A stretch of DNA of 64,000 nucleotides, from IMG/VR virus record IMGVR_UViG_3300000285_000003. One strand, written 5' to 3'. A program made the translations under genes and the position numbers. Under the pieces are notes generated by a model that was not told where the DNA came from, searched no databases, and saw only the letters and a list, made by a program, of their open reading frames with translations. This DNA is from a virus. Positions 2,221 to 19,801 of this stretch are shown here, piece by piece; the first letter of the stretch is position 1; each line of letters starts with the position of its first letter.

Positions 2221-2397
2221 ATTACTATATATTTTTAGCCATGTTTTAAGCGCTCTGAGGCAGAGTATGTCACCAAGTGGAGTAATTAACCACGAGTGCC
2301 GCAAAAATGTCTTAGAGCGCACCTAAAACGGCTTAAATCGAATGTTCTGACTGATCATCGGAACATTTACAAGAAATGTACAGTGTGTATGAAATAA

Positions 2398-2433
2398 TCT
2401 GTTTGGACAGGGGTTCGACTCCCCTCACGTCCA
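2398..2433 (+). ncRNA. tmRNA-like acceptor piece (P2 3' strand, GGAC, T arm, acceptor 3' strand) of a candidate permuted tmRNA
   Basis: The order is TCTGTTT(2398-2404), GGAC(2405-2408), AGGGG-TTCGACT-CCCCT(2409-2425), CACGTCC(2426-2432) and A2433. GGAC directly before a GGGGUUCGAcUCCCC T arm is the usual tmRNA 3'-end layout. The 5' extent of this piece is unknown. Confidence 0.5.
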
Positions 2434-2503
2434 CGGGGCATCCTCTACGCTATTGTGTAGATTCCATTTGGACAACCTAGACATGTTGTAAAACTGTCTA
2501 CAC

Positions 2504-2609
2504 GGGCGTGTTTGGTTTTGACAGACAGAGGAGATAAATACATTAAGCACTATACTATAAATTAAACGACAATGTAAATAACATTGTAGACTATACTAAC
2601 GTAGCGTAA
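2504..2609 (+). ncRNA. tmRNA-like coding piece (acceptor 5' strand, D-loop analogue, P2 5' strand, candidate tag ORF)
   Basis: GGGCGTG(2504-2510) pairs with CACGTCC(2426-2432) and gives G1-C72, G2-C71 and G3:U70. TTTGGTTTTGAC(2511-2522) resembles tmRNA UGGAUUCGAC. AGACAGA(2523-2529) pairs with TCTGTTT(2398-2404). A candidate tag frame runs from GCA 2547 to TAA 2607-2609 (ALYYKLNDNVNNIVDYTNVA). The 3' extent is uncertain. Confidence 0.45.
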
Positions 2610-2646
2610 GTTTAGTCTAGGTGTTTCCTACCAAAGTGGAGAGAAG

Positions 2647-2706
2647 AAGAAGTTGGTTCTTTGGGCTACACACCCGAGGATTAGGGTTCGACTCCCTAGC
2701 TTCTTC
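2647..2706 (+). ncRNA. 60-nt D-armless tRNA-like element immediately upstream of a CDS
   Basis: Acceptor AAGAAGT(2647-2653)/GCTTCTT(2699-2705) with one U:G pair. Only 7 nt (TGGTTCT) stand in place of a D arm. Hairpin TTGGG-CTACACA-CCCGA. T arm TAGGG-TTCGACT-CCCTA(2682-2698). Discriminator C2706. Confidence 0.45.
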
Positions 2707-2715
2707 CTATTAGTT

Positions 2716-18108: not shown

Positions 18109-18401
18109 GGGGTTTACGCCTGAAGAAATAGAAATACTACTTGATTGTATGAAATCCGGTAAATGGTTCTTATACTGTCTACATAGCAGGAGTGCCAAAC
18201 TATACAACAAGTGGATACACCCAAGGGAGGTAATACTGCCATGAAAGGGTGTTGGTGGAGCTAGGTAATTCAGTTACCCTTTGGAGGTGAAATGCCTCCA
18301 ATAAGGCTCGCAGGGTGTCGTGAGACACAAGCATGGACGTATGCGAAAACAGATCCAAATCGACGTTTTAATCATGTTTTGTTATATAGACAAAAGTCCA
18401 G

Positions 18402-18426
18402 TAGGGTTCGAATCCCTACAGAGCCA
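18402..18426 (+). ncRNA. orphan tRNA-like 3' half (T arm plus acceptor 3' strand) within a structured non-coding RNA region
   Basis: TAGGG-TTCGAAT-CCCTA followed by CAGAGCC and A. The best upstream partner, GGCTC at 18306-18310, gives only 5 bp over a 120-nt span. Upstream hairpins are GTGTC-GTGA-GACAC (GNRA loop) and TTTTGT-TATATAG-ACAAAA. Confidence 0.35.
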
Positions 18427-18627
18427 CAACATTTCTGATGATAAGAAGAGCTACAGCTTGTGAAAGTAATAGCTCTGTCCGCCTGTGAAGGCCGATATTA
18501 TCTATGATGCACAGTTTACCTGGCATCAGATTTCATACGCGTGTACGCTACGTAAGTGCGGGTTTGAATAACCTAAAGTCCGAGCTTAGCATCTCCGTAA
18601 ACCGCTATACGTCCGTCAACGTAGACC

Positions 18628-18655
18628 TGAGCATGTCATTAAACTGCTCATTTTT
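18628..18655 (+). terminator. Rho-independent terminator
   Basis: Stem TGAGCA(18628-18633)/TGCTCA(18645-18650) followed by TTTTT (18651-18655). Confidence 0.65.
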
Positions 18656-18656
18656 A

Positions 18657-18760
18657 GGGAAGTTAGTCTAATGGTAAAACAAGGGCATTGATAGATTGGA
18701 ATGTGTGCAAGCTTAAAAGAAACACTACCCTGCTTATCGGTTCGAATCCGATACTTTCCA
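18657..18760 (+). tRNA. non-canonical 104-nt tRNA-like gene with a ~33-nt insertion in the anticodon region; identity undetermined
   Basis: Acceptor GGGAAGT/ACTTTCC with one G:U pair. D arm TAGTCTAATGGTAAAAC. T arm ATCGG-TTCGAAT-CCGAT, discriminator A. Between AGGGC(18682-18686) and ACCCT(18727-18731) lie 40 nt instead of a 7-nt loop. No reading gives a clean CUA anticodon. Confidence 0.45.
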
Positions 18761-18766
18761 CTACAT

Positions 18767-18815
18767 GGCTAGATTGGATCCTTGCAAGGAAGCGGTTCGA
18801 ATCCGCACCTAGCCC
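18767..18815 (+). ncRNA. 49-nt mini tRNA-like element (acceptor, short hairpin, T arm) immediately upstream of a CDS
   Basis: GGCTAGA(18767-18773)/CCTAGCC(18808-18814) gives 6 bp. Then TTGGAT, hairpin TCCT-TGCA-AGGA and T arm GCGG-TTCGAAT-CCGC. Discriminator C18815. The primase ATG is at 18830. Confidence 0.4.
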
Positions 18816-18829
18816 CTAACTTATAAGTT

Positions 18830-19801
18830 ATGTATAGTACTAGAACAGCGATTACTATGTCCTTGAAAGATATCTTGGACAAAGTAAATGATTTAGACAT
18901 CTATACGTATTGTCTAGGACAGTTCAAAGTTGGAAAACTAATGAATAGTCCTTTAAGGTCTGGAGATAAGAACCCTTCATTTGGAATATTTCATTCTAAA
19001 ACAGGAGGGTTGTTATGGAAAGATCTTGGAACTGGAGAATGCGGAAACTCTCTGAAGTTCCTAAAAGAATACAAAGGTATAACGACTAGAGAAGAGCTTG
19101 AACGAGAATTATTGAGAATAGTACGCAGAATAAATCCTAATACAATCGTAAGGACAAATACGTACGATAAACCGAAAGGAGATACCGATATCGGAATAGT
19201 TCGACAGCCGTTTACCAATGTAGACAAACAGTACTGGAAACAGTTCGGAATACATATTGATACCCTAAAAAAGTTCAATGTGTTTAGCATTAAATACTTT
19301 CTTTGTAATAGTATCGTCCGAAGTATCTACAAAGAAAATAGTCCTATGTATGCATATAAAGTGTATGATAAGTTTAAGATTTATCGTCCACTTGCTTCCA
19401 AGTTTACTAAATGGCGTACCAATCTGACGAATCGGCACGTACAGGGATTATCCGAATTGCCTAAGGAAGGAGGCGAACTACTCATAATAACAAAATCACT
19501 GAAAGATGTGATGTGTTGCTACGAGATGGGTTTTAATGCAATAGCTGCTGCTAGCGAAACTGTGTTTATACCTGAAGACATACTCAGGTCTCTACGTTCC
19601 AAATGGAAACATATAGTTATACTGTATGATAGAGATCAAACCGGTATGCTTAAGGCTAGACAATATAGTAAGCAATACAAAATAGATGCTTTTTTCATTA
19701 ATAAAAAATTTAAAGCCAAAGATCTATCAGATGCTGTTCGTGACAACGGATTTAGCACCATGAAAGACTGGTTAACAAAAACGTTACAGAAATATGATTG
19801 A
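18830..19801 (+). CDS. DnaG-like DNA primase (Toprim)
   Basis: Degenerate primase finger region SPLRSGDKNPSFGIF...GTGECGNSLKFL. Toprim signature LLIITKSLKDV...ILYDRDQTG. Confidence 0.8.
   Translation: MYSTRTAITMSLKDILDKVNDLDIYTYCLGQFKVGKLMNSPLRSGDKNPSFGIFHSKTGGLLWKDLGTGECGNSLKFLKEYKGITTREELERELLRIVRRINPNTIVRTNTYDKPKGDTDIGIVRQPFTNVDKQYWKQFGIHIDTLKKFNVFSIKYFLCNSIVRSIYKENSPMYAYKVYDKFKIYRPLASKFTKWRTNLTNRHVQGLSELPKEGGELLIITKSLKDVMCCYEMGFNAIAAASETVFIPEDILRSLRSKWKHIVILYDRDQTGMLKARQYSKQYKIDAFFINKKFKAKDLSDAVRDNGFSTMKDWLTKTLQKYD

Follow-up and report, generated by a model that had tools for sequence, protein, structure and literature searches.

The question raised by positions 2398–2609 of the virus record IMGVR_UViG_3300000285_000003 is whether they hold a transfer-messenger RNA (tmRNA) gene in which the 3′ half precedes the 5′ half, and whether such an RNA is connected with the recoding of the stop codon TAG in the same phage. 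The window, by which we mean the whole analysed stretch of 64,000 nucleotides (nt), is ~98.7% identical to the RefSeq genomes cr7_1 (Burzaovirus coli) and cr124_1 (B. faecalis) of the subfamily Oafivirinae, Suoliviridae. The region 2398–2609 is the core of a circularly permuted (two-piece-type) tmRNA gene, and this gene is genuine and conserved. It is likely that the segment ~2378–2641, with a start possibly at ~2237, represents a functional circularly permuted tmRNA (ssrA) which is ancestral to the crAss-like family Suoliviridae.

The components of the two pieces, including the open reading frame (ORF) for the tag, are as follows.

2378–2405, plus strand: P2 3′ strands of the acceptor piece (P2d 2378–2380, P2c 2383–2386, P2b 2387–2390, P2a 2398–2405)
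2406–2433, plus strand: 3′ half of the tRNA-like domain, with GAC, the T arm, the acceptor 3′ strand CACGTCC (2426–2432) and the discriminator A2433
2409–2425, plus strand: T arm AGGGG-TTCGACT-CCCCT (stem 2409–2413/2421–2425, loop TTCGACT)
2434–2503, plus strand: intervening spacer, presumed excised, 70 nt here, with a hairpin at 2444–2461 and a clade-specific hairpin module CCTAGACATGTTGTAAAACTGTCTA just 5′ of G1
2504–2555, plus strand: 5′ end of the coding piece, with the acceptor 5′ strand GGGCGTG (2504–2510; G3 is 2506)
2511–2521, plus strand: D-loop analogue TTTGGTTTTGAC, a part of the coding-piece 5′ end
2522–2529, 2538–2541, 2547–2550 and 2553–2555, plus strand: P2 5′ strands (P2a, P2b, P2c and P2d, respectively)
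2568–2609, plus strand: tag ORF GAC...GCG TAA, encoding DNVNNIVDYTNVA and a stop, with a hairpin inside at 2570–2574/2582–2586
2587–2619, plus strand: P5-like helix (2587–2593/2613–2619 and inner pairs), enclosing the last tag codons and the stop
2620–2641, plus strand: compact H-type pseudoknot at the coding-piece 3′ end (S1, GGTG 2620–2623/TACC 2629–2632; S2, TTCC 2625–2628/GGAG 2638–2641)

In the order of the gene, the acceptor piece consists of the P2 3′ strands, GAC, the T arm, the acceptor 3′ strand and A73. The coding piece consists of the acceptor 5′ strand beginning with G1, the D-loop analogue, the P2 5′ strands, a 12-nt A/U-rich linker, the 13-codon tag ORF, P5 and the H-type pseudoknot. 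CCA is not encoded in the genome after A2433, where the sequence reads A-CGG.

ARAGORN calls a permuted tmRNA at this site, with the 3′ tRNA domain at 2398–2434, the 5′ domain at 2504–2529 and the tag at 2568–2609. The Rfam 15 family RF04321 (tmRNA_permuted) matches 2374–2609 with 63 bits (gathering score 47, E = 8e-10), well outside what chance would produce, and the Bohxovirus tmRNA reaches 70.6 bits against the same gathering score. The tmRNAs of cr273_1, Dulem virus 42 and unspliced cr118_1 are below this gathering score and were identified via ARAGORN or in-silico splicing. The first-pass annotation of the region, made from the letters alone, had suggested ARAGORN, the Rfam tmRNA models and covariation in relatives as tests, and every sequence element it listed is present where it was placed. 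As it proposed, GGGCGTG (2504–2510) pairs with CACGTCC (2426–2432), giving G1–C72, G2–C71 and G3:U70, and (C)AGACAGA (2522–2529) pairs with TCTGTTT(G) (2398–2405). Its order of the halves, 3′ before 5′, is upheld by ARAGORN, by Rfam and by covariation across many lineages, which is strong and includes the acceptor and P2 pairings. A one-piece tmRNA, in which a downstream T arm (2682–2698) pairs with G1, is ruled out, as the flanking strand pairs locally with 2646–2653.

Retrieval by the conserved 3′ motif yielded 39 IMG/VR loci, which fall into 20 clusters with 57–99% identity to the window. An internal motif retrieved 14 further loci with slightly different tails. Structure was tested on a spliced alignment of 21 lineages, from which the spacer was trimmed. 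RNAalifold independently recovered the acceptor stem, the T arm, the four-segment P2, the 5′ hairpin, the in-tag hairpin and the P5 helix enclosing the stop. Over 62 pairs, 98.8% of cells are paired, against 32–47% with slid partners. Double-sided changes are seen in 31 pairs versus 4–9 with slid partners, a count reached in 0 of 500 shuffles.

G1–C72, G2–C71, G3:U70 and C4–G69, together with U70 (2430) and A73, are invariant in all 21 lineages. Acceptor positions 5–7 covary: GTG/CAC, ATG/CAT, GAT/ATC, CAT/ATG and GTA/TAC are all seen. The acceptors of distant genera are GGGGCTG/CAGCTCC or GGGGGAT/ATCCTCC, with G3:U70 retained, and the alanine identity elements are retained in Bohxovirus, Dulem virus 42 and cr118_1. 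Four of the five T-stem pairs covary. The four segments of P2 comprise 19 base pairs (bp), with compensatory change in 14 of them (7 of 8 in P2a, 1 of 4 in P2b, and 6 of 7 in P2c/d); the P2 equivalent of cr118_1 is a 7-bp helix, TATTGAC/GTCAATA. The D-loop analogue motif TGG.TTTGA is near-invariant, the exception being a decayed copy (L028).

The spacer between the two pieces is 14–180 nt long among the relatives and ~230 nt in Dulem virus 42, and its sequence is not conserved. The distance from G1 to the 3′ tail is constant at 115–118 nt. A variable, unconserved spacer combined with fixed spacing elsewhere is the pattern expected for an excised intervening segment. In Burzaovirus-like lineages, a covarying hairpin module CCTAGRCATGTTGTAAAACTGYCTA (2470–2503 in the window) lies directly 5′ of G1. 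This module (window; spacers of L018, L020, L027, L038 and L039) is duplicated in long spacers (135–180 nt) and absent where the spacer is 14–16 nt.

The tag ORF is conserved. The consensus across lineages is (A)-[D/G]N[V/Y]N(N)[I/V]VDYT[N/H/C]VA, and the forms including the initial Ala are A[D/G]NVNNIVDYTNVA and A[G/D]NYNVVDYTHVA. GAC or GGC serves as the resume codon. The VDYT-VA core persists despite many synonymous third-position changes (GAC/GAT, TAT/TAC, ACT/ACA/ACC, GCG/GCA, AAT/AAC), and one compensatory pair joins the third positions of two tag codons. The synonymous changes and this codon-linking pair indicate selection on the peptide and the RNA structure alike. The tag shows purifying selection on its peptide, and its translation is supported by this codon-type conservation.

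The first-pass annotation had placed the tag frame from GCA 2547 to TAA 2607–2609. Its stop is correct; its start is not, and the real start is GAC 2568. The longer tag ALYYKLNDNVNNIVDYTNVA from GCA 2547 is ruled out: the frame is not conserved 5′ of 2568, and GCAC at 2547–2550 is a paired strand of P2c. The frame is conserved only from the GAC or GGC at 2568, because there is a 1-nt indel between clades just upstream.

The structures around and behind the stop are also maintained. P5 has 12 pairs, which are 97.6–98.8% paired, with compensatory change in two of them. Both stems of the pseudoknot are 100% paired. Its variation is nearly all in the loops, and the few changes in the stems are compensatory or preserve a wobble pair. 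In distant genera, S2 is swapped for AAACC/GGUUU, GACC/GGUC or GGC/GCC. What is shown directly is the layout of the gene, its covariation and identity elements, and the signature of coding in the tag.

The gene has been annotated before. A “transfer-messenger RNA, SsrA” is present in RefSeq cr7_1 and cr124_1 (in both corresponding to window 2344–2700) and in cr130_1, cr131_1 and cr273_1. ARAGORN sets the end 91 nt past the tag stop in every lineage, and in the two verbose outputs the start is 54 nt ahead of the tRNA domain. The RefSeq ends are therefore algorithmic and arbitrary: the start at 2344 cuts a conserved hairpin (2340–2368), and the end enters a separate downstream element. The novelty for crAss-like phages which the first-pass annotation implied does not hold, since RefSeq already annotates the gene and permuted tmRNAs of phages are documented (PMC9004378). 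In that survey, 53 of 133 unique phage tmRNAs are permuted, nearly all of them marine. tmRNAs are reported in mycobacteriophages (PMC4131195), and the paper behind RF04321, for which RefSeq viruses were scanned, reports 79 phage sequences (PMC11915505). Our literature search found no paper discussing tmRNA in crAss-like phages. Although already annotated, the gene is an uncharacterised, new example of a known RNA type.

The tmRNA is located 5′ of an ECF sigma gene, at the same position, in Burzaovirus, Chuhaivirus, Cacepaovirus, Buhlduvirus, Bohxovirus, Dulem virus 42 and cr118_1 (Uncouvirinae). Homologous permuted tmRNAs that are not annotated are found at L239 2284–2473 (PV686213.1, Bohxovirus) and L241 1589–2104 (PP511876.1, Dulem virus 42); the latter record annotates small ORFs, which are spurious, across the tmRNA. 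Public annotation can be corrected at several points: the arbitrary RefSeq tmRNA ends, a likely spurious “tRNA-Cys” (see below), and the tmRNAs missing from Bohxovirus, Dulem virus 42 and cr118_1. Among bacterial genomes, the motif is seen only on a 101-kb contig binned with a Segatella copri metagenome-assembled genome (MAG) and on one short contig. The former (L236, JAJXAL010000002.1; 101,041 bp, the size of a complete phage) carries the tmRNA. Its place in the Segatella copri MAG bin, by binning only, gives a weak hint at Segatella copri as a host. A pattern of T arm and acceptor searched on viral contigs was too generic, as it returned unrelated phage tRNAs and tmRNAs, and it was used only for comparing tag endings.

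The homologue in cr118_1 (L245, NC_055872.1, 1022–2035) is an unannotated tmRNA which is circularly permuted and also split by a group I intron. The 759-nt intron (1038–1796) is inserted at the boundary between the T loop and the T stem. It matches Rfam Intron_gpI with 76 bits, is preceded by U at −1, ends in G, and holds an antisense HNH endonuclease ORF. ARAGORN finds this tmRNA only after in-silico splicing. Its acceptor is GGGGCTG/CAGCTCC, and its tag is GNNVNFFDYTLKVA followed by a stop. In the intron-form tmRNA genes described previously (PMC11915505), a group I intron is likewise found in the T loop, with U at −1 and a terminal G. In that paper, no gene form combines permutation with an intron, the introns do not exceed 700 nt, and all endonucleases listed are LAGLIDADG, whereas the gene in cr118_1 is permuted, its intron is 759 nt, and the endonuclease is of the HNH type. 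Unlike the intron-form genes, the gene in the window contains no intron.

Downstream of the pseudoknot, the locus contains one more tRNA-like structure.

2646–2707, plus strand: tRNA-like minihelix (acceptor 2646–2653/2699–2706, pseudo-anticodon arm 2658–2665/2673–2680, T arm 2682–2686/2694–2698)

The minihelix has neither a D arm nor G3:U70. Nearly all lineages have it. Seventeen distinct variants retain the acceptor (6–8 bp) and the T arm, the stems of both covarying. The interior can be as short as a few linker nt, as in L035 (7 nt in the 7-bp register), and reaches ~37 nt at most. The minihelix starts 1–5 nt 3′ of the pseudoknot in the tabulated Oafivirinae lineages and somewhat farther in Bohxovirus and cr118_1; it is seen in cr273_1 as well. 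Both ARAGORN and RefSeq cr7_1 name it tRNA-Cys(ACA) (window 2641–2707; NC_055895.1 20926–20992), overlapping the annotated tmRNA. Whether 2641–2707 could be a genuine decoding tRNA that merely adjoins the tmRNA can be judged from its variants. ARAGORN makes this call in the window, cr7_1 and L018, the element can fold into an arm of 8 bp that closes a 7-nt loop, and in cr273_1 real tRNA-Met and tRNA-Leu genes follow the tmRNA locus. A decoding tRNA is nevertheless very improbable here. Besides the absence of the D arm, there is no match to the Rfam tRNA family RF00005 at the gathering score, and the sole match is to tRNA-Sec with 29.7 bits, against a gathering score of 47. Elsewhere the interior is a 4-bp hairpin, an unstructured linker or a few nt (L035), yet the acceptor and the T arm covary, and the anticodon loop is truncated in the cr118_1 version. 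The ACA loop itself is not maintained from lineage to lineage. The annotated “tRNA-Cys” is most likely a conserved minihelix. The most economical reading of its anatomy is a putative substrate of RNase P and RNase Z, which would set the 3′ end of the coding piece and free it from the downstream mRNA.

Several points weigh against a functional tmRNA with the properties described so far. The tag does not have the canonical (L/V/M)AA end; in most lineages it ends in ...[N/H/C]VA, and ARAGORN reports “Tag not identified”. Only the tag of Buhlduvirus cr273_1 ends in ...QEAA. A degron-type C-terminus of the form ...(A/L/V/M)AA is typical of the tmRNA family and is not strictly defining; the tag of the Bacteroides host, GETNYALAA, is a strong degron. 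Pseudoknot 1 (PK1) is normally important in tmRNA function. No PK1 between P2 and the resume codon was found by RNAalifold and a custom covariation scan on 47 unique sequences, and the gap from P2d to the resume codon is just 12 nt (2556–2567). Several PK1 candidates of 4 bp have at most two covarying pairs each and clash with better-supported helices. A cryptic tertiary interaction is possible there. Most lineages do not encode CCA. No SmpB gene is present among the ten neighbouring ORFs, so the RNA must rely on host SmpB. There is no obvious minihelix in Dulem virus 42, and the processing role proposed for the minihelix rests only on its anatomy and position. Two IMG/VR contigs carry apparently decayed copies, from which it follows that some genomes can do without the gene. 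L028 has GGCAGAG in place of the T loop and a G-to-A change in the D-loop analogue; L031 has unrelated sequence instead of the 5′ half, with the 5′ strand of the T stem among the parts lost. Finally, expression, processing, aminoacylation and tagging are all inferred.

Some of these points would suit an RNA of another kind. The non-canonical tag end, the missing PK1 and the failure of ARAGORN to identify the tag could be taken to mean that the RNA is mainly a decoy or inhibitor of host trans-translation, titrating SmpB, AlaRS (alanyl-tRNA synthetase) or EF-Tu, and there is a precedent, as inhibition was proposed for the tmRNA of mycobacteriophage DS6A, which consists of a tRNA-like domain (TLD) only (PMC4131195, PMC11915505). 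A decoy is quite improbable in our judgement, since conservation extends to the tag ORF, to the context of the resume codon, to the placement of the stop within P5 and to the 3′ pseudoknot, and the synonymous changes around the VDYT-VA core are unexpected for an ORF that is never translated. It could also be supposed that the locus is a non-functional relic, such as a captured fragment of host ssrA or a remnant of an attachment site, flagged by chance. Automated calls of phage tmRNAs can be host ssrA fragments (PMC9004378), and the two decayed variants would fit. Compensatory evolution is observed in every helix of the Suoliviridae gene, however, and its position is the same in seven genera or more, from two subfamilies. 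In bacterial genomes, only phage-like contigs carry the tail motif. The gene is permuted, whereas Bacteroidota hosts have a standard one-piece tmRNA. A relic is hardly credible, and the extensive covariation effectively refutes it.

The remaining alternative concerns the stop codons. TAG recoding in this phage, claimed by the first-pass annotation, is real: frames of late genes on the minus strand contain 166, 48 and 40 in-frame TAG codons. The code is split by strand. The plus-strand genes (1–22400), the tmRNA included, have 0–1 in-frame TAG and use the standard code. The minus-strand late genes (22967–63998) are rich in TAG, with 166 in a frame of 6001 codons, for example. The code of the late genes in the phages with this tmRNA is as follows.

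Window (Burzaovirus): TAG read through
cr130_1 and cr131_1: TAG read through
cr273_1 and Dulem virus 42: TAG read through
Bohxovirus PV686213: TAG and TAA apparently read through
cr118_1 (Uncouvirinae): standard code

The first-pass annotation had tied the two together functionally. In such a scheme, the tmRNA would be an accessory to TAG recoding, either rescuing or tagging products at unsuppressed TAG codons of late genes or relieving a non-stop load caused by read-through of host TAG stops. The scheme can draw on the confinement of the recoding to the minus-strand late block, with the tmRNA in the standard-code plus-strand block, on the recoding of TAG in all six Oafivirinae representatives with the tmRNA (6/6), and on the tag stop, for which every variant seen uses TAA or TGA, none of them TAG. 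It is unlikely all the same. The homologous permuted tmRNA of cr118_1 is in a phage with the standard code, whose late genes are intact (a 4949-codon ORF has no in-frame TAG), which indicates that the tmRNA is older than the recoding and independent of it. The Oafivirinae are one clade, so the co-occurrence amounts to a single phylogenetic event and not to an association seen several times. In Bohxovirus, TAA is the stop of the tag although the giant gene contains 31 in-frame TAA. Many phages that do not recode encode tmRNAs (PMC9004378, PMC4131195). An attractive but unsupported link to recoding is thereby removed.

The code of Bohxovirus itself is worth describing. In Bohxovirus sp. ‘endotrachealis’ (L242, PV686213.1 1–50000, minus strand), the giant late ORFs of 5400, 2085 and 1805 codons become continuous only when read-through of TAG and of TAA is assumed. 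The 5400-codon frame contains 64 TAG, the 31 TAA mentioned above and no TGA, which suggests that amber and ochre are both reassigned and that TGA alone serves as a stop. In GenBank, the annotation is broken up into tiny ORFs, and the giant protein is too divergent from that of the window for an alignment to show the amino acid at TAA or TAG. In the window, ARAGORN with introns allowed finds no CUA suppressor tRNA, and its tRNA calls with long “introns” are artefacts.

Based on these comparisons, a functional permuted tmRNA is the preferred reading, and the following course can be proposed for it. The RNA would be transcribed within the standard-code plus-strand early/middle operon, because neither promoter-like nor terminator-like signals flank the locus. 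Host tRNA-processing enzymes might free the two pieces, with RNase P cleaving 5′ of G2504 and RNase Z or exonucleases trimming after A2433. The CCA-adding enzyme would finish the acceptor 3′ end, since CCA is not encoded. The minihelix could be the second RNase P/RNase Z substrate, which sets the 3′ end of the coding piece and detaches the next mRNA; the next coding sequence begins at 2716. The pieces would then be held together by the acceptor stem and the four-segment P2, whose pairings are seen in the covariation. Host AlaRS would probably charge the RNA with alanine via G3:U70 and A73, which are invariant. With host SmpB, the RNA might rescue stalled ribosomes and add A-[D/G]N[V/Y]N(N)[I/V]VDYT[N/H/C]VA. 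It can be speculated that the fate of the tagged proteins differs from that in host trans-translation, as the ...ALAA degron is absent. The RNA would then be a general supplement to, or replacement of, ribosome rescue by the phage, and not a device specific to recoding.

crAss-like phages are among the most abundant viruses of the human gut, and little is known about how they manage host translation. A tmRNA conserved across the family would mean that these phages bring ribosome rescue along. The defined RNA ends and the tag peptide are testable molecules, and the latter can be searched for in existing gut metaproteomes.

The closest known systems are the two-piece tmRNAs of Alphaproteobacteria, some Betaproteobacteria and some Cyanobacteria (RF01849, RF01850, RF01851; merged as RF04321). 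They have the same order of acceptor piece, intervening segment and coding piece, and share G3:U70, A73, the T arm, the D-loop analogue UGGUUUUGAC, the P2 joint and the tag stop in P5. The merged model is passed at 63–71 bits. The lineage models are not: beta_tmRNA gives 41.4 bits against a gathering score of 84, for the tRNA domain only, and the alpha and cyano models score lower than beta, their matches being removed by clan competition. Unlike the bacterial two-piece tmRNAs, the Suoliviridae RNA has no PK1, its tag begins with Asp or Gly and ends in ...VA, its coding piece ends in a single small pseudoknot followed by the minihelix, and its carriers are phages with hosts of the Bacteroidota type.

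Permuted tmRNAs of marine myophages (OM43 phage Melnitz, pelagimyophages, and cyanophages; PMC9004378) are likewise ssrA genes of lytic phages located among early genes, and upkeep of the hijacked translation machinery was proposed as their role (PMC9004378). In the marine phages, the genes are similar to those of the alphaproteobacterial or cyanobacterial lineages to which the (former) hosts belong; a glutamine riboswitch accompanies some of them, and the tags have the canonical ending ...ALAA. No lineage model of the three fits the crAss-like gene, which differs in its tag and originates from the mammalian gut. The tmRNAs of mycobacteriophages (one-piece in the Bxz1 group, TLD-only in DS6A; PMC4131195) are also borne by phages and dependent on host SmpB. 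They differ in being one-piece or without a tag ORF, and in belonging to actinobacteriophages.

It can be tentatively speculated, as a possibility that we hold to be doubtful, that the Suoliviridae tmRNA is a fourth, phage-borne two-piece lineage of independent origin. Such a lineage would be characterized by the lack of PK1, a single pseudoknot, a built-in minihelix for excision by RNase P/Z, and a non-LAA tag that routes proteins away from ClpXP-type degradation, with an additional intron split in cr118_1. If this is true, cr118_1 would have the first tmRNA gene requiring splicing plus permutation-type cleavage.

The minihelix also has a counterpart outside phages. Comparable elements are mascRNA at the 3′ end of MALAT1/MEN-beta (Rfam RF01684) and the tRNA “punctuation” of polycistronic transcripts. 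mascRNA is an acceptor/T-arm mimic directly 3′ of a structured noncoding RNA, as is the case here. In mascRNA-type systems, cleavage by RNase P makes the 3′ end of the upstream RNA, and the likeness to the present case is a functional analogy only. The Rfam mascRNA match over 2649–2703 is weak (15 bits, far below the gathering score). In comparison with mascRNA, this is a bacterial phage system, and the interior of the minihelix is highly variable. The minihelix suggests a general route by which structured RNAs are excised from phage operons.

Upstream of the acceptor piece, two further structured elements are recognized.

2237–2333, plus strand: structured 5′ domain (helix 2251–2262/2308–2319 around a hairpin 2277–2280/2290–2293; weak outer helix 2237–2240/2330–2333)
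2340–2368, plus strand: hairpin GAATGTTCTGA-CTGATCA-TCGGAACATTT (10–11 bp, 3–4 compensatory pairs, 97–99% of cells paired)

In the 5′ domain, 95.4% of cells are paired against 31–45% in slid controls, and 11 pairs show double-sided change against 0–4. The frequent G.U pairs with G on the 5′ side indicate that the plus strand is the RNA strand. The region 2237–2368 is conserved in Oafivirinae and absent in cr118_1, and the 5′ domain is possibly a part of the mature acceptor piece. In the loop of the hairpin 2340–2368, the central TGATCA is invariant, and the loop opens with C in most rows, or with T (two rows).

A near-identical motif, CCAAGTGGAG and CCAAAGTGGAG, is seen at 2274–2283 in the 5′ domain and at 2631–2641 in the tail of the pseudoknot. 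The repeat may have arisen by chance, mark a recognition site common to both places, or be left over from the duplication that gave rise to the permutation. A pairing of the leader ACCTA (2323–2327) with TAGGT (2618–2622), judged by eye, was rejected, as several lineages disrupt it and it is in competition with P5 and the pseudoknot. Farther upstream, 1960–2237 is intergenic sequence conserved across lineages, with covarying hairpins such as GAATG-AATTAA-CATTC, a hairpin in two copies with the loop AAGTATCTTCGTATCA, and a GATCAAA motif. No Rfam family matches 1960–2237, and the RNAalifold energies of the two strands over ~1960–2237 are near equal (−91.1 vs −91.9 kcal/mol).

A second minihelix of acceptor and T arm, without an anticodon arm, is located at ~18767–18815 on the plus strand, in a cluster of odd tRNA-like genes (18305–18830, plus strand). 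In this cluster, the tRNA at 18657–18761 has a ~31-nt insert in the anticodon loop; it is called Ile-GAU by ARAGORN with introns allowed and scores 40.9 bits against Rfam tRNA. At 18305–18427, relaxed thresholds give a “stop” tRNA with a UUA anticodon and a 30-nt insert.

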